IMG/VR virus record: IMGVR_UViG_2778261499_000007
Strand: one strand, 5' to 3'
Length of the DNA: 14,225 nucleotides
DNA from: a virus
Taxonomy: Duplodnaviria > Heunggongvirae > Uroviricota > Caudoviricetes
Shown piece by piece: positions 3,446-14,225 of this stretch. The position numbers were made by a program, and so were the translations under genes. Under the pieces are notes generated by a model that made no database searches, was not told the DNA's origin, and worked only from the letters and a program-made list of their open reading frames with translations. How positions within the stretch are numbered: the first letter of the stretch is position 1; every line of letters begins with the position of its first letter.

Positions 3446-3775
3446 CACCTTGATTATATAAATTCTAATAATTAGCGTAGTAACGGTATTTTCAGACCTC
3501 TATCAATCCCATCAATACGTCACCCCCACCCTTTAGATGCATACATCCGACCTACTTTGTAGGCTTGGCGTACTGCCAAGGTCGCAGCTATGCGACTCCT
3601 ATCTATCACCACTTTATAAAGCTTGATAGATATCTTTTGATCAATATCAATGTTTTCCGGGTATTTACCCGGCTATAGTTCGAATCAAGGAAGGGGAGCA
3701 TTGATAGAGACACCCAAAGGGGTGACTGAAAGTCACCTGGCATAGCCAGTGAAAGCACCCAACCGAACAAACAAA

Positions 3776-3790
3776 TCAACTTCTCGCAAA
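3776..3790 (+). promoter_or_regulatory. Conserved leader motif copy 1 (TCAACTTCTCGCAAA), 26 nt before an ATG
   Basis: Identical 15-mer to 4367-4381, at the same distance from the start codon. Confidence 0.6.
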
Positions 3791-3801
3791 AGGTGATAGT
3801 T

Positions 3802-3924
3802 ATGGGTATCAAGAACAGTGCCAGCGCATGGCAAAAGGCCAGGTTTCATCACCCACACATTGTTAAGGCAATTGAGGTGGTTGGAGTTTTAGCCCTGATG
3901 TTAGCTCTGTGTGTGGAGGTGTGA
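3802..3924 (+). CDS. Small protein, 40 aa, with a hydrophobic C-terminal segment
   Basis: AGGTGA SD upstream. Translation: MGIKNSASAWQKARFHHPHIVKAIEVVGVLALMLALCVEV. It is below the ORF-track size cut-off and was translated by hand. Confidence 0.4.
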   Translation: MGIKNSASAWQKARFHHPHIVKAIEVVGVLALMLALCVEV

Positions 3925-4286: not shown

Positions 4287-4292
4287 TAGGAA

Positions 4293-4336
4293 CAGGCCCG
4301 AAGGGCTTAGCTTTAGCTAAGGTCCTATCAGGACTC
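4293..4336 (+). repeat. Inverted repeat IR-R (44 nt, partner of 1437-1480)
   Basis: Sequence: caggcccgaagggcttagctttagctaaggtcctatcaggactc. It starts 7 nt after the HTH gene stop. Confidence 0.9.
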
Positions 4337-4366
4337 CCACACAGTCCAACAGGTTATTAACTAAAT

Positions 4367-4381
4367 TCAACTTCTCGCAAA
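4367..4381 (+). promoter_or_regulatory. Conserved leader motif copy 2 (TCAACTTCTCGCAAA), 26 nt before an ATG
   Basis: See 3776-3790. Confidence 0.6.
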
Positions 4382-4392
4382 GGGGTACCACT

Positions 4393-5103
4393 ATGTTTAA
4401 AGGTCTTGTTGTTACGCTATTGGCTTGCATTGTATTTGGTCCATGGGTGTTAGTAATTGCTTTACCTATATTGCTGATCATGAGCTTAGGGAATGATATT
4501 AAAAAGCTGCATGCACAATATAAGGAGCATCCTGGAGCAGTCATAACAAGTCTGGTTATAGTCGCGGGGCTTATTGGCTGGGTCTACTTCTCTCTTCCCA
4601 CAGGAAATACAACTGCAAATGTAGAAGAGGCGAACGCACAGCATGAAGAAGTGGTTAACGTCGCCGACCTTACATGGGAGGACAGGGTAAAAGCATATAA
4701 ATATATTTATGGTGTGCTAGATTGCGATCTCTCTAAAGATATAGGATGCACAGATAAATACCAGATTCACGCCTGGCTGTGGAATCATGCAGAAAAAGGT
4801 GCTTGCAACCAGATTAAAGTGGCGGTTAACAGTGGGGCACCTACTGGGAAAAATAAAGATGTTCTGACGGTATGGTGCAAGGATGTAAAAGGCAATGATC
4901 GTTGGCTACAGATGCGCCACATGGACGGTGTAAGCATAGAAACTACACGAACGGCTCGATGGTATAACGGTGAACTCGTTCACGAAGCATGGCAGAATAA
5001 CGCCTGGATCACTGAGGGAACACTCCTGAATGTTGATATGGAAGCATTGAAGATGCTTAATGAGATGTACGGTGAAGCCGTAGAAACCTCTCCGATGAAA
5101 TAA
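4393..5103 (+). CDS. Membrane protein (236 aa) with N-terminal TM helices and a Cys/Trp-rich extracytoplasmic domain; function unknown
   Basis: Hydrophobic stretches: LVVTLLACIVFGPWVLVIALPILLIM and VITSLVIVAGLIGWVYF. Soluble C-terminal domain. Followed by a strong terminator. Confidence 0.6.
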   Translation: MFKGLVVTLLACIVFGPWVLVIALPILLIMSLGNDIKKLHAQYKEHPGAVITSLVIVAGLIGWVYFSLPTGNTTANVEEANAQHEEVVNVADLTWEDRVKAYKYIYGVLDCDLSKDIGCTDKYQIHAWLWNHAEKGACNQIKVAVNSGAPTGKNKDVLTVWCKDVKGNDRWLQMRHMDGVSIETTRTARWYNGELVHEAWQNNAWITEGTLLNVDMEALKMLNEMYGEAVETSPMK

Positions 5104-5113
5104 CCACACCTAC

Positions 5114-5140
5114 CAGGGGCCATCACGGCCCCTTTTTATT
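5114..5140 (+). terminator. Rho-independent terminator
   Basis: AGGGGCC-atcac-GGCCCCT followed by TTTTTATTT. Confidence 0.8.
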
Positions 5141-5200
5141 TATCCCCTATTTACACTCCTTTCAGTCCTGATCATCACTCCCTACCCCCTGATCAATTAA

Positions 5201-5251
5201 CCCCTATTTAAGGGGTATTTAATGGGTATTTAATGCCTATTTATTGATTTA
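5201..5251. repeat. Phased 11-bp repeats (SSSTATTTAWK, 4-5 copies)
   Basis: TATTTA starts at 5205, 5216, 5227 and 5238, an exact 11-bp period. There is a degenerate copy at about 5247 and an isolated copy at 5148. Confidence 0.7.
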
Positions 5252-6486
5252 ATCCGTTTTATGCCACAACCGCCCGGTTGACAGAGTAAGAGAGAGGGTG
5301 TAACCCTTTTTCGTAATACTAATAAAATCAATAGCTTAGCTCAATTGGCCTTTTCTCTGTTTTTGTCAAATTTAACATACCCTAAAAAACTGCAAAATCT
5401 GGCTGCAAGATTATCTGCAGCTGGATTTCTTACACCTCAATTTGTGGTATCACCCTGACTAGTTTGTGCATAAAATGAACAGTTTTTAACATTTCCTCTT
5501 CACCTGGTAACCACACAAAAAGCTAAAAACGAGGCACAGATAATCTTAGAGGCCTGTTTTCTTGTTATCACTCTGGAAACGTCGTAGAAGTGATTTTGAT
5601 GAAAGATGACCTACCCTATTACACCCCCATTTTTTGTTATCACAATTGCATCCTGTGCGGTGTATGGCTGTGTGCTGAAAGCGGTCTTGGGTGTGGGTGT
5701 CAGAAATATCCATTAGCGGTATTAATACCCGTCAGATGTTCGTCTGAGGTGCCAGGCAGGCGCTCCCCCACCTCCCTTTTTTCTTCTAACAATTCTCAAA
5801 TATCACACCACTGCCGACCACGTTACTACTCTGTTAATTCTTAAGCTTTGCTGTATGTTGTGCACATTATTTATTCAGGTGCGTGTACGTAAATTCTGGG
5901 CCTCCTTATCATGATTTTTAAATCAGATTTTGTAGTTCGGTTTCTTAGTGTAGATAAGATCTATTATGTTAAATGCAATTTTCCCAACCCTTCAAATCAA
6001 TGACTTACATGTAAGCATGCACTAACACCCCACACAGCACATTAGACGTATAGATGGCTATATCCCACATTTTTGATTGTTTTGTAGTCATTCCCCTGAT
6101 CATTTAACCAGTATAGTTTGTTCTTTGCAGACCACAAAATCGGAATTTACATCTGATTAACATAATCTGTTAGCATGATCACTATTACCCACACAACAAT
6201 AACCCCATGCAAGACTCTTCAGGCAATTTATCGGCGTGTTGGTGTGAACAGTCTTTCATGTTCTTTATGTTTTCATTGTCCTGTGTGAGGGAAGGATGGA
6301 CTGCCCCAGGGGCCACACTTATGATGCCCGGTCAACATAGCTATTGATAAAATCAACGGGTGTTGATCTGCATATTTCCCACACATGAGAGGAAATCAGA
6401 GCAAAGAGAGAGGAGAGAGGTTTGCTAGTCAAAATAGGTCAATTGACGGCTAATACAGAGTAAAAAATCAGATGCAATCACTCCCC

Positions 6487-6673
6487 ACCTGTTGGGATTT
6501 CCCGCACCTGTATAAGAATACAGTCATACTTTCCCGTTATACGGTCATACACATGATGGAATAACCTGTTGGAATTTCCTACAGGTTTAACCATACACAG
6601 GAGCTAACCTGTTGGAATTTCCTACTACTACCTGTCGGTATTTCCCACAGGTACCTGTTGGAATTTCCCACAC
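6487..6673 (+). repeat. Iteron array (5 x 21 bp, ACCTGTTGGAATTTCCCACAS); candidate replication origin
   Basis: Copies start at 6487, 6564, 6607, 6630 and 6653. The last three have a 23-bp period. Each contains an internal ACCTGT...ACAGGT dyad. An AT-rich flank (6674-6708) contains GATCTATTCTCTT on the minus strand (6683-6695), 1 mismatch from the oriC 13-mer GATCTnTTnTTTT. Confidence 0.75.
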
Positions 6674-6797
6674 TAATAGATAAAGAGAATAGATCAATAA
6701 AAAGAACTCCCCCTATAATCCCCCAACAAGGGGGGATGGGGAGGGATCAGAGAGTGGGGAAGGTTTTCTAAGGGAAAAGCTTAACCCACAAATGAAA

Positions 6798-7086
6798 GCC
6801 TAAAGAGCATTAGCGACTCTTTAGGCAATCTGTGTGTGGGGTGACAATGTATTCCATACATGACACGTCACCCAATTGTGTGTGGGGTGCTTACAGCACT
6901 TAAGCCTCTGGCTTAACCCTTCGGGCCTCTGTGTGGGAAGCGTAGTGCGATAGCACGTAGCTTTATAATGTGGAGTCCGGATAAGAGACTTCTGTTTCCA
7001 ATCCGGACCGTTTAAGCGAGGGATTCCGCTCGCCCGTGTATGCACACACGTAATAGGACGCTCAGAAATCGATTTTAAGGCCCAAA
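6798..7086 (+). other. Cluster of GC-rich hairpins (candidate structured ncRNA or single-strand initiation signal)
   Basis: GCCTAAAGAG/CTCTTTAGGC (6798-6826); GGGTGAC..GTCACCC with nested ATGTAT/ATACAT (6839-6873); CCC-TTCG-GGG context (6917-6925); GTCCGGAT/ATCCGGAC (6975-7008); GCGAG/CTCGC (7016-7033); AGGCCC/GGGCCT (7069-7086). TGTGTGTGGGGTG occurs twice (6831, 6877). Confidence 0.35.
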
Positions 7087-7231
7087 ACGGGGCCTACAGC
7101 AACCTAAACCATACTCCATAGTGCAATTGCATTGCCTGATGCTTAAATCGCGTTGTAGGGCATCTCATGAGGTTTGAGTTTAACACCCTCCAAAGTTTTA
7201 ACAAAAAGTGCTCTCCCTCCATTGTGGGCCA

Positions 7232-7261
7232 TTGACAATCTTATTGCATAAATGCTATAAG
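7232..7261 (+). promoter_or_regulatory. Promoter P1 (TTGACA-18-TATAAG)
   Basis: Read directly. Shares the ATTGACAAT motif with P2 and P3. Confidence 0.5.
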
Positions 7262-7360
7262 TGATTCTGGTTTTGACACGGTAGGGGCCATTAATAATGT
7301 TTACCCCTTTGCTGTGGACTTGCTTGCACCTATAGCACACCTAAATGATAATAATTCTCA

Positions 7361-7389
7361 TTGACAATTGGTTGACAATATGATAAGAT
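7361..7389 (+). promoter_or_regulatory. Promoter P2 (TTGACA-17-TAAGAT)
   Basis: Read directly. A second TTGACAAT lies 11 bp downstream, at 7372. Confidence 0.5.
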
Positions 7390-7424
7390 TATAAATAGGG
7401 GGAGAAACAGATCCGGAGGTCAAT

Positions 7425-7574
7425 GTGGAAATTACTGATGCAATAGCGATCATCAACCTGGCTGTACTGTGGTGCGGTGTTGCCTACATAGCCGGAGTAA
7501 CTGCAATCGACAATCTCGAAGAAAAAATGATAGATAAATACAAAAAGATTGTTGACAATTTGACGAATGTCTGA
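7425..7574 (+). CDS. Small single-TM peptide (49 aa, GTG start)
   Basis: GGAGG lies 5 nt upstream of the GTG. Translation: VEITDAIAIINLAVLWCGVAYIAGVTAIDNLEEKMIDKYKKIVDNLTNV. Not in the ORF track; translated by hand. Confidence 0.4.
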   Translation: MEITDAIAIINLAVLWCGVAYIAGVTAIDNLEEKMIDKYKKIVDNLTNV

Positions 7575-7580
7575 TAAAAT
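7552..7580 (+). promoter_or_regulatory. Promoter P3 (TTGACA-17-TAAAAT)
   Basis: Read directly. It lies inside the 3' end of the 49-aa ORF. Confidence 0.55.
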
Positions 7581-7630
7581 ATAAAGCATAGGGTAATTCT
7601 CATCATAGTGAATTTCCTTAAACAAAAATG

Positions 7631-7662
7631 CGGGGGCTTGTCTTAAGTTCCCGTTTCTTTTT
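7631..7662 (+). terminator. Intrinsic terminator / attenuator in the leader of the replication operon
   Basis: CGGGGGCTT-gtctt-AAGTTCCCG (9-bp stem including two G.U pairs) followed by TTTCTTTTT. It sits between P3 and the ATG at 7706. Confidence 0.55.
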
Positions 7663-7705
7663 AACCGTATATCGCACAGGCGGTGAGCTGACAGGAGATT
7701 GAATC

Positions 7706-7915
7706 ATGGCTAAAACCGGACCGATAAGCCAGCTGGTAAACTGGACTACTGACGAAATCGTCGAGAACGTGCTTAAAGGTAACTTTCGAAAAACTTCCGT
7801 TTATGCATTTATTCGTAAACACAAAGGGGAATACCCACATATTGAAGCGGCAATAGAAAAACTTAACTTTATCCGCATTGAGCGTGAGCTGGAAAGATAT
7901 AAACATCTACTTTGA
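7706..7915 (+). CDS. Small protein (69 aa), possible DNA-binding regulator
   Basis: AGGAG lies 8 nt upstream. First gene of the rightward operon. KTSVYAFIRKHKGEYP weakly recalls AlpA/Xis-type sTiYr.i..g.fP. Confidence 0.5.
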   Translation: MAKTGPISQLVNWTTDEIVENVLKGNFRKTSVYAFIRKHKGEYPHIEAAIEKLNFIRIERELERYKHLL

Positions 7916-7939
7916 TAAATAATCTTGGAGGATCATATT

Positions 7940-8326
7940 ATGGCAAATAACGATGAAAATTTTACTCCCTTTTTTAAACGTTTCATCAAATACACTTTTA
8001 AAAATCCGATTGCAAAAACTGCAACCAATAAAGAAAGATTTCACTTAAATGTGTTGGAGGTAACAATTTATGGTGAAATGGTAAGTTATTCTTTTAAGGA
8101 GGGTGAAGAAATAATTATCTCAGAGCTCTCGACGCAGACATTAGCAGACGATTATGATGTTACAGAGAAAACAGTAAGGTCGGCTATCAAAACATTAGAG
8201 GCTGCAGGTCTGATAAACGTTAAACGAGAACAGGGCAAATCGAATATCTACGAATTGCTAATTACCCCTGATCAGCTTGGCAAGATGTGCGATGAGCAGG
8301 GTATTAGAGAATATTTTATATATTAA
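7940..8326 (+). CDS. Winged-helix DNA-binding protein, short paralog of the Rep-like protein (128 aa)
   Basis: GGAGG lies 8 nt upstream of the ATG at 7940. The track start at 7925 is a TTG. It aligns along its whole length with the N-terminal 130 aa of the next protein (FTP.F..FI.Y.F..P.A....NK...ERF.L...E..IYG.MV...F.....I.ISE...LA.......VSAIK.LE.AGLI......G.SN.Y.LL.TPDQL..MC.E.G). Confidence 0.65.
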   Translation: MANNDENFTPFFKRFIKYTFKNPIAKTATNKERFHLNVLEVTIYGEMVSYSFKEGEEIIISELSTQTLADDYDVTEKTVRSAIKTLEAAGLINVKREQGKSNIYELLITPDQLGKMCDEQGIREYFIY

Positions 8327-8337
8327 TGGGGGGAACT

Positions 8338-9258
8338 ATGGCAGGAAATAAACTGGGGGCACCTTTTACCCCCTCTTTCGATTTCTTTATTCAGTATGAT
8401 TTTGATAAACCAGTAGCAACAACAATTTCTAATAAAAAGACTGGAACAGTTAAAGAGCGCTTCTATTTAACAGACTTTGAAATGTTGATTTATGGAAAAA
8501 TGGTGGGATTTCATTTTAACGGTGAGGGAATTTATATTTCAGAGCAAAAACTGGCAACTCAACTCAGAAAGGATCGCGGGAAAATAGTAAGCGCTATTAA
8601 ATCTCTGGAAAATGCCGGGCTTATTTCTAAAGATAGCCGGAAAGGCATGTCTAATAATTACAAATTGCTGAAAACCCCTGATCAATTGTTGGATATGTGC
8701 ATTGAGAAGGGCGTAAATATTCCAGAAGGCATCTTAGAGACTTTCGGAAAGACTGCCGCTAAAGTAGAACAGCCTCAGGAAGCCCCAAAACAAGCCACAC
8801 AGCAAGCTAAAAAGGCTAAAGTAGTGCAATTGCCTACCCAAGACACTAAAGCGCCTCAAATTAACGCTGTTAGTGACAAGCCACGCCGGGGCCGTCCTGT
8901 GAAAGATGTCACCGATGGAGGCTGGATCGTCCTGGGTGAGAGTGAGGCTAAAGGCATAATGCGATCACTGTGGGAAAGCAAATACAAAGATTTAAACAAA
9001 CGTCGCCCGATCCTTTTGTCAAAGATTCAGGAGGATTTTTACACCGCAGAAGAGGTAAGCCAACATAAAGGGAAAAGAGAGGGTGAAATCTGGAAACCGG
9101 AAGAATACTGGCATTTAACCAGACCTGTGTTTATTTTTGCAAATAAGCTTATTGGGATGGGATTTGAAATATTGTTGGATAAAACCTGCGGAGATTATCC
9201 CGAAATATTGTGGAGAAATGTTAGAAAAAATAAAAAAGGCATTTTAGAGTTTAAATAA
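8338..9258 (+). CDS. Putative replication initiator (306 aa): N-terminal winged helix plus a PRRGRP basic linker plus a C-terminal domain
   Basis: GGGGGG lies 4 nt upstream of the ATG at 8338, and the paralog alignment starts at MAGNK. The wHTH pattern is typical of plasmid/phage initiators. The iterons lie about 1.3 kb upstream. Confidence 0.55.
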   Translation: MAGNKLGAPFTPSFDFFIQYDFDKPVATTISNKKTGTVKERFYLTDFEMLIYGKMVGFHFNGEGIYISEQKLATQLRKDRGKIVSAIKSLENAGLISKDSRKGMSNNYKLLKTPDQLLDMCIEKGVNIPEGILETFGKTAAKVEQPQEAPKQATQQAKKAKVVQLPTQDTKAPQINAVSDKPRRGRPVKDVTDGGWIVLGESEAKGIMRSLWESKYKDLNKRRPILLSKIQEDFYTAEEVSQHKGKREGEIWKPEEYWHLTRPVFIFANKLIGMGFEILLDKTCGDYPEILWRNVRKNKKGILEFK

Positions 9259-13293: not shown

Positions 13294-13395
13294 TGTCCAC
13301 TCTGTGGATTTGAGTTCTACTCAAACCTGCATAGCAGGCACTGATATTGTGATCAAAATCAATAAGTTAGCCTGACCGGACAAACTCCAGGCAAG

Positions 13396-13432
13396 AAAAA
13401 AGCCCCTAAGTGTTAACAAAGGGGCTCTTCTC
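13396..13432. terminator. Bidirectional terminator between the convergent operons (best on the minus strand)
   Basis: AGCCCCT (13401-13407) / AGGGGCT (13420-13426), preceded by A6, so the minus strand reads stem plus TTTTTT. On the plus strand it is followed by CTTCTCC. Confidence 0.65.
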
Positions 13433-13456
13433 CGGTATCCTTTTGATGCGGGGCAA

Positions 13457-13504
13457 AACCTGCTAACAAAAATCAACCTCTCGCGAGACTAATGTTAGCA
13501 GGTT
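13457..13504 (+). other. 12-bp perfect hairpin whose 24-nt loop carries leader-motif variant 3
   Basis: AACCTGCTAACA / TGTTAGCAGGTT. The loop aaaatcaacctctcgcgagactaa contains TCAACCTCTCGCGAG (13473-13487) and the palindrome TCTCGCGAGA. Confidence 0.6.
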
Positions 13505-13822
13505 GCCGGAAGGTAAGTCAACTCCGGTCTATAAACCTTAAAGCGACTATAAAATCGCCCCGCCAATTGTGATGATCCGACCTTTGAGGCGGGTCCGGTG
13601 CCCAGGGGGTGCAGTGATGCACAAACCAGGCAACGATAAACAGGCTAACAGTGATAGCGGCGCTCAATCAGCGCACTAAATCCTAACCAGTCCGGGAAAG
13701 AGGCTGGCTCTATCGACCGCTCATGCACGGGACAATGCATACCTGATAAAGGATTCTCACAAGGGACCAATCGCGAGAAAGAAGTGGAAAGGGGCTGATT
13801 TGTGGTGTATCACTACGGCCTC

Positions 13823-13846
13823 AAAAGACATCCTATTGTCTTTTTT
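13823..13846 (+). terminator. AT-rich hairpin plus T-run (weak plus-strand terminator abutting the stop of the wrap-around gene)
   Basis: AAAAGACA-tcctat-TGTCTTTT followed by TT. Confidence 0.35.
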
Positions 13847-14148: not shown

Positions 14149-14225
14149 CCCCTCAGAGTGGATAGCTGCCAGTGTGGCGTAATTCAGGCCGCTATAGTGC
14201 TTTCCGTCATCCCAGCCAACCGCTA
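14149..14225. repeat. Terminal overlap copy 2 (identical to 1-77)
   Basis: Same comparison as for copy 1. Confidence 0.9.

Follow-up and report, generated by a model that had tools for sequence, protein, structure and literature searches.

A gene-free region of an Escherichia coli plasmid combines a predicted iteron origin with non-coding DNA resembling that of rV5-type phages

Iteron-type replication origins that work with winged-helix initiators (pPS10, R6K, F, P1 oriR and, with its O protein, lambda ori) consist of tandem repeats of about 20 bp spaced about two helical turns apart, an adjoining AT-rich tract and a gene nearby for the cognate initiator. Initiator specificity and repeat sequence diverge together in these systems, lambda O joins an N-terminal DNA-binding half to an exchangeable C-terminal half, and flanking DnaA boxes are not universal. 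Phage satellites such as P4, PICI/SaPI, cf-PICI and PLE are small (11–16 kb), with their own replication module, a few morphogenesis genes and an incomplete virion set; PLE and PICMI have virulent helpers, and the PISP and cf-PISP of Vibrio are episomal satellite-plasmids (PMC13230959). Here we describe a long gap between genes (positions 5104–7424) in the virus record IMGVR_UViG_2778261499_000007, a stretch of 14,225 nt (hereafter the window) that is a complete, circular E. coli plasmid of 14,148 bp. The gap is probably a composite, cis-acting control region of a satellite-like plasmid of rV5-type phages (Vequintavirus), the 137-kb lytic E. coli myoviruses that are the closest phage relatives of the plasmid's structural proteins.

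The window is taken as a circular replicon because its terminal 77 nt (1–77 and 14149–14225) are identical. Its near-full-length relatives are E. coli plasmids of 13.2–13.7 kb present in only 7 of 5,426 complete genomes, a rare family to which PLSDB contributed two further members; PLSDB and the 5,426 E. coli genomes returned this plasmid family only, and a phage collection contained no near-full-length relative and gave no match in a nucleotide search with the gap. Draft assemblies and metagenomes supplied additional members, which brought the number of distinct sequences of the gap region to 19, so that the intactness of open reading frames (ORFs) is counted below against 18 relatives of the window. 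One member, NZ_CP043822.1, is deposited as a 39.6-kb plasmid with three unit copies, either a multimer or an assembly artefact. When distant relatives were sought with the capsid protein, E. coli relatives of at least 94% identity were recovered together with one cluster at 82%, from sample SRR3146357, which sits on a 4.9-kb contig without the gap, and pattern scans across genome contigs and viral contigs found nothing. Literature searches returned no account of this plasmid family, nor of any rV5/Vequintavirus satellite.

The predicted origin in the gap is a member of the iteron class and has all of the class features listed above. It differs in that a distance of about 1.7 kb separates the iterons from the main rep gene downstream of them (start at 8326), instead of the two abutting or the iterons lying inside the gene, in that no DnaA box flanks them, and in that a 450-nt hairpin module, homologous to a locus of virulent phages, is placed between the iterons and the rep promoters. 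Among the satellites, the closest resemblance is to PISP and cf-PISP, which are likewise maintained as plasmids, and, as with PLE and PICMI, the likely helper (judged by sequence comparison) is virulent. The plasmid shares the small size, the replication module and the incomplete virion set of satellites, but carries tail genes (tape measure, tube initiator and chaperone-like ORFs) besides a capsid gene, has no parA, integrase or terminase small subunit, and is 34% non-coding, a part of which appears to be derived from, or to share words with, the non-coding DNA of the helper.

A first-pass annotation, made from the letters of the window alone, had described 5104–7705 as 2.6 kb without a credible ORF. 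For 5104–7424 this holds under every genetic code, and the same gap is present in about 20 relatives; 7425–7574 is a real gene (orf49, for a protein of 49 amino acids, aa) and the sole ORF that behaves as one, so that the truly gene-free span is 5104–7424, the block that the text of that annotation itself lists as free of ORFs. The longest stop-to-stop frame in 5104–7705 has 105 codons (shuffled mean 98, 5–95% range 73–134), stop codons are evenly spread over the six frames (47–55 per frame), and reassigning TGA, TAG or TAA, a control that had been recommended, opens no long frame. Recoding and sequencing error, both named at the outset as possible refutations, are excluded, and the gap is reproduced in about 20 independent assemblies: PGAP annotation leaves a gap of 2.2–2.4 kb in 8 GenBank/RefSeq relatives, and the stored gene calls of 11 further contigs leave the same one. 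All gap ORFs with a length of 20 aa or more were examined for conservation over the 19 distinct family members, and every one except 7425–7574 is either broken in some relatives or shows mainly non-synonymous change. The four listed ORFs that had been dismissed as noise fail this test one and all, with 5590–5844 and 6821–7045 each intact in 3 of 18 relatives, 7143–7340 in 1 of 18, and 7389–7625 (minus strand) showing 23 synonymous against 132 non-synonymous changes. A gene for a Cys-rich peptide at 5590–5844 was rejected on that count. The six longest stop-free frames of the gap, searched against Pfam and PHROG as a test for pseudogenes, gave nothing, and a search for tRNA and tmRNA genes was likewise negative. 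Together the genes cover 9,372 of 14,148 bp (66%), in line with the original estimate of a coding density of about two thirds.

Comparative evidence gives good support to a predicted iteron-type replication origin at 6485–6671, together with the AT-rich tract beside it, served by a Rep encoded about 1.7 kb downstream. Five copies of a repeat of about 21 bp (ACCTGTTGGAATTTCCCAC) start at 6485, 6562, 6605, 6628 and 6651, the last three at 23-bp spacing, and each unit has short terminal inverted arms. The tract read from the sequence at 6672–6720, with about 22% G+C over 6672–6707, adjoins the iterons and is a candidate DNA-unwinding element. The rep genes occupy 7925–9258 on the plus strand, where Rep310 (8326–9258) joins a winged-helix domain at its N terminus to a C-terminal half that is mosaic, and both Rep310 and Rep133 match HTH_36 and the PHROG replication-initiator and O-like families. 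The strongest evidence of the study, and the ground for the origin assignment, is that the iterons co-vary with the DNA-binding domain of Rep. A multi-copy array is present at the iteron position in 19 of 19 members; in members with the window-type Rep fold the layout is kept and the iteron sequence differs. At least five iteron sequence classes track the N-terminal winged-helix domain, and classes A, C, D, B2 and E are each found with a distinct N-terminal domain or recognition-helix region and with any C-terminal allele. The mosaic structure of Rep is seen in L001, which has the iterons and N-terminal domain of the window and the C-terminal half of L003; L008, with class-B-like repeats and an E-type Rep, is an imperfect case. 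As judged by comparison across the family, iteron class and Rep DNA-binding domain appear to have been switched together at least five times. DnaA boxes were considered as part of the origin and rejected, being enriched throughout the replicon (15 against 3.6 expected) with none adjoining the iterons.

Next to the AT-rich tract lies the hairpin zone (6720–7170, plus strand), which contains GTGTGTGGGG repeats and a minus-strand terminator-like hairpin (6826–6798), and has folding z values of −3.3 on the plus and −7.9 on the minus strand. In a sliding scan, excess stability was seen over 6480–7080 (z down to −6.4), and 5400–6480 folded no more strongly than shuffled sequence. The 'dozens of stable hairpins' first attributed to the gene-free blocks were therefore an overstatement, as within the gap local folding is significant only in 6480–7080 and at the terminator near 5115. 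Positions 6931–7166 of the window are homologous to 131687–131916 of the Vequintavirus MaxTheCat (E = 7e-4 for the window allele alone). A profile of the plasmid-gap family matched this phage at 131685–131933 (E = 3.5e-19), single plasmid alleles share 63–80% nucleotide identity with the phage locus, and all but one of the 19 plasmid alleles matched a profile of the phage locus, in the same orientation and at E values as low as 9e-28.

Within the homologous segment is a conserved stem-loop (6970–7031, plus strand) with the inner stem TCCGGAT/ATCCGGA (6976–6982 and 7001–7007), which compensatory substitutions preserve in two allele types of the plasmid as well as in the phage. RNAalifold applied to a joint plasmid–phage alignment gave 22 pairs, and in 10 of these both partners have changed. 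Pairing is retained in 94% of cells, against 81% in shuffles (0 of 500 reach the observed value) and 27–45% with slid partners, and the covariation score is 0.40 against 0.03–0.07 in controls. By these measures it appears to be the best-supported covarying element, in which a DNA and an RNA hairpin are indistinguishable here. Origins assisted by structure or by a transcript include the T4 oriF/oriG R-loop origins, ColE1 RNA II and the single-strand initiation hairpins of F and R6K. The plasmid would be comparable to these in having GC-rich hairpins beside an unwinding region, oriented as downstream transcription, an analogy that comes with no sequence similarity.

In the phage, the hairpin zone is the last of four elements in a locus at MaxTheCat 130960–131950 (30960–31950 in L023). 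The first is the gene for a 116-aa winged-helix protein, which matches phrog_12838 'replication initiation protein' (E = 5e-80) and HTH_36, and is named replication initiation protein in the RefSeq record of phage V18; it is followed by four direct repeats of 21–22 bp (TAACTGTCCGTGATACGGACAC, unique in the genome) and an AT-rich tract. Repeats, AT-rich tract and hairpins have the same order in plasmid and phage. The locus lies about 1.5 kb from the cumulative-skew minimum and is 91–97% conserved in 119 phage genomes, in most records of which it is left unannotated or has tiny ORFs called over it. In the genome paper of rV5 a replication origin could not be defined (PMC3606486), and literature searches returned no characterised Vequintavirus origin; the locus described here is a candidate for it. 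The plasmid also has a 133-aa winged-helix ORF (7925–8326), a paralogue of the Rep N-terminal domain (segments 8234–8301 and 8644–8711), that is limited to some members (the window, L002, L015 and L016) and is close in size to the 116-aa initiator of the phage. About 18 records labelled 'Campylobacter phage' are 90–95% identical to E. coli Vequintaviruses over the non-coding loci, which suggests mislabelled hosts or contaminating phages in the deposits.

Whole-plasmid alignments of the family show that the gap is divided into regions of different behaviour. The left end (5104–5299; terminator and A/T-rich repeats) is variable and has indels, 5300–6440 ranks among the best conserved parts of the replicon, 6440–7300 is highly variable (24–30% divergence, many indels) and in this similar to the rep genes downstream, and 7300–7600 is conserved again. 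An alignment of relatives had been proposed as a check for conserved non-coding blocks, and 5300–6440 is such a block. The view that the gene-free DNA is not random filler is upheld for part of the gap by the divergence within 5300–6440. Pairwise divergence is 4.1% in 5300–5805, 5.0% in 5806–6254 and 7.9% in 6255–6440, compared with 7–16% at the four-fold sites of neighbouring conserved genes, so that most of this block evolves 2–3 times more slowly than synonymous sites. Substitutions by codon position are 50/60/43 over 5300–6400, without periodicity (128/17/39 in the capsid gene), folding z values are +0.24 and +0.04 in the left part, the core as a whole has no excess on either strand, and no good promoter was found in 5300–6440. 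Taken across the family, these comparisons indicate that the 1.1-kb core (5300–6440) is under purifying selection and is likely neither coding nor a stable RNA.

The core can be divided into three parts, because in two members (L015 and L020) positions 5806–6254 are replaced by about 404 nt of non-homologous sequence that is likewise free of ORFs. The left part (5300–5805), which is constrained, non-coding and unstructured, includes a perfectly conserved palindrome with a 13-bp stem (5395–5428). The swappable cassette (5806–6254) carries, in the window allele, TATGTTAAAT at 5965, ATATCCCACA at 6060 and GACTCTTCAGGCAAT at 6213. The replacement cassette, for which no match was found in phage or PLSDB, retains TATGTTAAAT and GACTCTTCAGGCAAT. 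The right part (6255–6440) contains TTTCCCACACATGA (6375–6388), a word also present in the non-coding box of the phages.

This box, an ORF-free region of 2.5 kb in rV5-type phages (MaxTheCat 90051–92584), is drawn without explanation in Figure 2 of the rV5 genome paper (PMC3606486), and literature searches found no reported function for it. Like the plasmid gap it is ORF-free over 2.3–2.5 kb, and the elements carrying the two regions share structural-gene ancestry and exact words; the box differs in lying at the skew maximum between convergent gene arms, whereas the plasmid core is situated between a terminator and the origin. No collinear homology was found between core and box, the best nhmmer match having E = 0.007 over 55 nt. 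At its centre is an exact 18-mer, TAACAATTCTCAAATATC, at 5787–5804 of the window and on the opposite strand at 91576–91593 of the phage, and in the plasmid this word terminates exactly at the cassette boundary. To avoid post-hoc bias, a box-sized window was slid along the whole phage genome and the independent exact runs in common with the core were counted. The box tops the ranking at k = 10, 11 and 12, with 22, 12 and 7 runs compared with sliding-window means (± sd) of 7.5 ± 3.3, 2.3 ± 2.1 and 0.8 ± 1.1, respectively; 511 windows that do not overlap the box all fall short of it. In the same test nothing came from coding controls or from the intergenic block 13294–13845. The words common to core and box include TATGTTAAAT, GACTCTTCAGG(CAAT), ATATCCCACA and TTCCCACACA(TGA), which in the phage are confined to the box or found mainly there, as well as TAACAATTCTCAAATATC. 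The shared words are conserved in four phage boxes and throughout the plasmid family, and a distance of about 250 nt separates TATGTTAAAT from GACTCTTCAGG in plasmid and box alike, although overall the order and orientation of the words are scrambled between the two. A model in which cassette and box are built from a repeated unit was rejected, as the spacing is alike (about 250 nt) but the interiors are unalignable.

Several other observations were made on the box and on short words. A triple mini-hairpin at 3704–3755 of the window (CACCC..GGGTG, GTGAC..GTCAC, CTGGC..GCCAG) is 88% identical to MaxTheCat 90900–90951 within the box, and there is a weaker inverted copy at 93118–93061 of the phage; the first hairpin of the triple scores as a terminator on the phage minus strand. 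Two linear phage records, MH752840.1 (Pr121LW) and MK327930.1 (EdH4), start at the same base of the box (MaxTheCat 91167), adjoining the repeated ATTATGTCAnAnAA, and MT884008.2 opens about 450 nt beyond that point; both a physical terminus and a shared convention are possible. The hexamer CCACAC occurs 26 times in the window (4.4 expected), and CCCACACA 10 times (0.4 expected), 9 of them in non-coding DNA. The orientation of CCCACACA flips across the iterons, from plus at 6029, 6188 and 6378 to minus at 6833, 6879 and 6930. There are 20 copies of it in the phage (4.8 expected), 5 of which are in the box. As a phage promoter element CCCACACA was rejected, since the phage copies are scattered and often within genes, and it is kept only as a lead.

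The gene content of the plasmid (capsid, decoration-like, tape-measure, chaperone-like, tube-initiator and orf152 genes) points to the same phages. Four proteins match Vequintavirus homologues, the Dit-like tube initiator at 51% identity, orf152 at 45%, the tape measure at 26% and the capsid at 24%; no other plasmid gene, including rep, has a phage counterpart. Searches by Pfam, PHROGs and tblastn found no terminase, portal, sheath or tube gene. Structural genes in this combination suggest, in keeping with the guess of the first-pass annotation, that the plasmid may be a satellite-like element of rV5-type phages. The rV5 genome is circularly permuted (PMC3606486) and packaging in Vequintavirus is by a headful/pac mechanism (PMC13211470). 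The helper-like non-coding DNA of the plasmid is limited to the hairpin module, the core and 3704–3755. Because the plasmid has no terminase genes and no helper-like non-coding regions but these, and Vequintaviruses package by headful/pac, we infer that the hairpin module and core could serve as docking sites for the replication or headful packaging machinery of the helper. A putative packaging or decoy role has its basis in the word vocabulary that the core has in common with the phage box. In an uninfected cell, Rep would bind the iterons, open the AT-rich tract and recruit host replication proteins, so maintaining the plasmid. Upon infection by an rV5-type phage, DNA-binding proteins of the phage would recognise two kinds of site, the hairpin module, which is like that of the phage, and the word clusters of the core, which are like those of the box. 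The phage replisome or its loader would bind at the hairpin module, and the headful packaging machinery, or some other factor that binds the box, at the core. Amplification and packaging of the plasmid would follow, with helper parts combined with the capsid, tape-measure and tube-initiator proteins that the plasmid itself encodes.

A number of points weigh against this picture. Every step of the mechanism is drawn from comparison, and identities of the structural proteins to known Vequintaviruses are low (24–51%), so that the true helper may be an unsampled relative. The element could also be a defence or decoy plasmid and not a transmissible satellite. The hairpin-zone allele of the window is the most diverged from the phage (E = 7e-4 when taken alone), its stem-loop has lost two of the four pairs of the outer helix, and the covariation comes from about three independent lineages. 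The phage locus is an origin by prediction only, and the skew there also follows the direction of transcription. At the plasmid origin the iterons have no flanking DnaA box, the nearest box with one mismatch (6185–6193) being 300 nt away. As to core and box, collinear homology is lacking, the interiors between the shared words are unalignable (z near 0), and the specific words were picked after the fact, although the genome-wide ranking is itself unbiased.

Three other explanations were weighed against that of a composite control region. That the core or the whole gap specifies one or more long non-coding RNAs, with a regulatory, anti-phage or origin-priming role, and that its conservation reflects RNA function, we regard as unlikely. 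It would account for the strong structure of the hairpin zone on both strands and for the stem-loop with covariation support, which on the plus strand tolerates G-U pairs; besides the minus-strand terminator-like hairpin there are weak minus-strand promoter-like sites at 7378–7351 and 7555–7527, and the phage box has a strong leftward sigma-70-like promoter (92456–92429). However, Rfam searches gave no match to the window at gathering score and a single, chance-level match to 5000–7800 at E values up to 1, and nothing relevant in the phage origin-like locus or the box in either mode. Unrelated sequence can take the place of a cassette of about 450 nt, and the shared words, scrambled and in mixed orientation, are unlike a collinear RNA; with no folding excess and no good promoter in the core, clusters of protein-binding sites in DNA are favoured over one long RNA. 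The earlier suggestion of a heavy investment in cis-acting DNA or RNA is thus borne out for the origin, by comparative evidence, but not for a long structured non-coding RNA in the conserved core.

Quite improbable, in our judgement, is that the gap serves plain plasmid housekeeping, with an origin and, in addition, sites at which host proteins act in partition, multimer resolution or copy control, and that the likeness to phage is a relic of ancestry. The iteron/Rep origin is clear, no ParA/ParB or recombinase is encoded, so that cis sites for host systems would be needed, one record is a trimer, and the CCACAC-type words and 11-bp repeats could be sites for host factors. Against this, the non-coding pieces are 63–88% identical in nucleotides to phage, compared with 24–26% amino-acid identity for capsid and tape measure, and neutral relics would not be expected to stay so close. 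The shared words point specifically to the phage non-coding box, two of them persist in the replaced cassette, and no related sequence was found on other plasmids or chromosomes in PLSDB or the 5,426 E. coli genomes. Far-fetched by comparison is a region that once coded or still codes for protein, whether by gene decay, recoding or assembly error. The size of the gap and the Cys-rich peptide that the 5590–5844 frame would give are in its favour, but that frame is intact in so few relatives, no reassignment of a stop codon opens a frame, the gap recurs across independent assemblies, indels are few, evolution is slower than at synonymous sites, and the long frames have no similarity in Pfam or PHROG.

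The remaining features lie at the two ends of the gap. On the left, an intrinsic terminator (5115–5133, plus strand) of the upstream 236-aa gene has a 7-bp GC-rich stem followed by a T-run, and is conserved in the family. Behind it is an A/T-rich repeat patch (5129–5250) with two copies of CCCCTATTTA and 3.5 copies of the 11-bp tandem repeat TATTTAATGGG (5205–5243), which is indel-rich among members (10.6% divergence) and possibly represents bent DNA or a protein-binding array. On the right, a strong sigma-70-like promoter, P1 (7361–7389, plus strand; TTGACA-17-TAAGAT with TG), is found within duplicated TTGACAAT boxes (7232, 7361 and 7372), with TATAAATAGGGGG next to it at 7390–7401, in a region at least 90% conserved in the family. 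It is followed by orf49 (7425–7574, plus strand), which codes for a hydrophobic protein, starts with GTG and is preceded by GGAGG at a distance of 5 nt. This gene is called by PGAP in all relatives, is intact in 18 of 18, and shows 59 synonymous against 24 non-synonymous changes and a codon-position variation of 7/5/16; its product matches no Pfam or PHROG family. A second strong promoter-like sequence of the sigma-70 kind, P2 (7552–7580, plus strand; TTGACA-17-TAAAAT, 11 of 12 matches, with TG), is at the 3' end of orf49, and a terminator-like hairpin (7630–7654, plus strand), a possible attenuator, is in the leader ahead of orf69 and rep. Read together, P1, orf49, P2 and the hairpin appear to be the control region of the rep operon. 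The gene-free blocks had been said to contain at least six repeat families, and six were found: the five iterons, the 11-bp repeat in 3.5 tandem copies, CCCACAC(A) with 8 occurrences where 0.46 are expected, TTGACAAT with 4 copies in the gap, AAATAGGGG with 3 where 0.02 are expected, and CCTGATCA with 3.

Elsewhere on the plasmid, the membrane-like 236-aa protein (4393–5103) specified just 5' of the gap is the product of the most variable gene of the family, with about 43% nucleotide identity across allele groups and lengths of 173–239 aa. It matches no Pfam or PHROG family, and the gene may be a slot for accessory or defence-type cargo. A 45-nt inverted repeat (arms 1437–1481 and 4292–4336, 89% complementary, both intergenic) encloses a segment with the start of the capsid operon and a helix-turn-helix gene, and could be a bidirectional terminator pair or a site of recombination or inversion. 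A repeated 21-mer, A(A/T)TCAACTTCTCGCAAA(A/G)GG, is present at 3773–3793, 4364–4384 and 13470–13490. It lies directly 5' of the start of orf236 and of a possible 43-aa ORF (3793–3924; third-position bias 1/3/10, intact in 6 of 8 relatives), and looks like a common translation-initiation or regulatory element. The convergent intergenic block between the tape-measure gene and orf152 (13294–13845) diverges by 1.9%, less than any other part of the replicon, and has no conserved ORF, no phage match and a single locally structured window at about 13354–13473.

Most of what is known of virulent-phage satellites comes from Vibrio, and the first description of episomal satellite-plasmids dates from 2026. 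It is a tentative proposal, to which we give less than even weight, that the present element is the first E. coli satellite-plasmid to parasitise a virulent myovirus of the rV5 type, with non-coding DNA made up of cis sites that mimic those of the helper. If so, the hairpin module would capture the helper replication machinery, the core would reuse the binding-site vocabulary of the box, and the 2.5-kb box of the phages would be a functional cis-acting region (for example, for initiation of headful packaging, or another genome-handling site) and not filler. Should the link to phage be wrong, the region would still be an iteron origin of the ordinary kind, with a conserved flank of unusual length. 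For the phages, the locus of initiator gene, four-repeat array and hairpins is a candidate for the undefined replication origin of the rV5 type, and the words common to box and core are direct targets for probing the function of the box. Phages of this type are widely used in phage therapy and in O157 biocontrol, and the plasmid would bear on their performance on strains that carry it.

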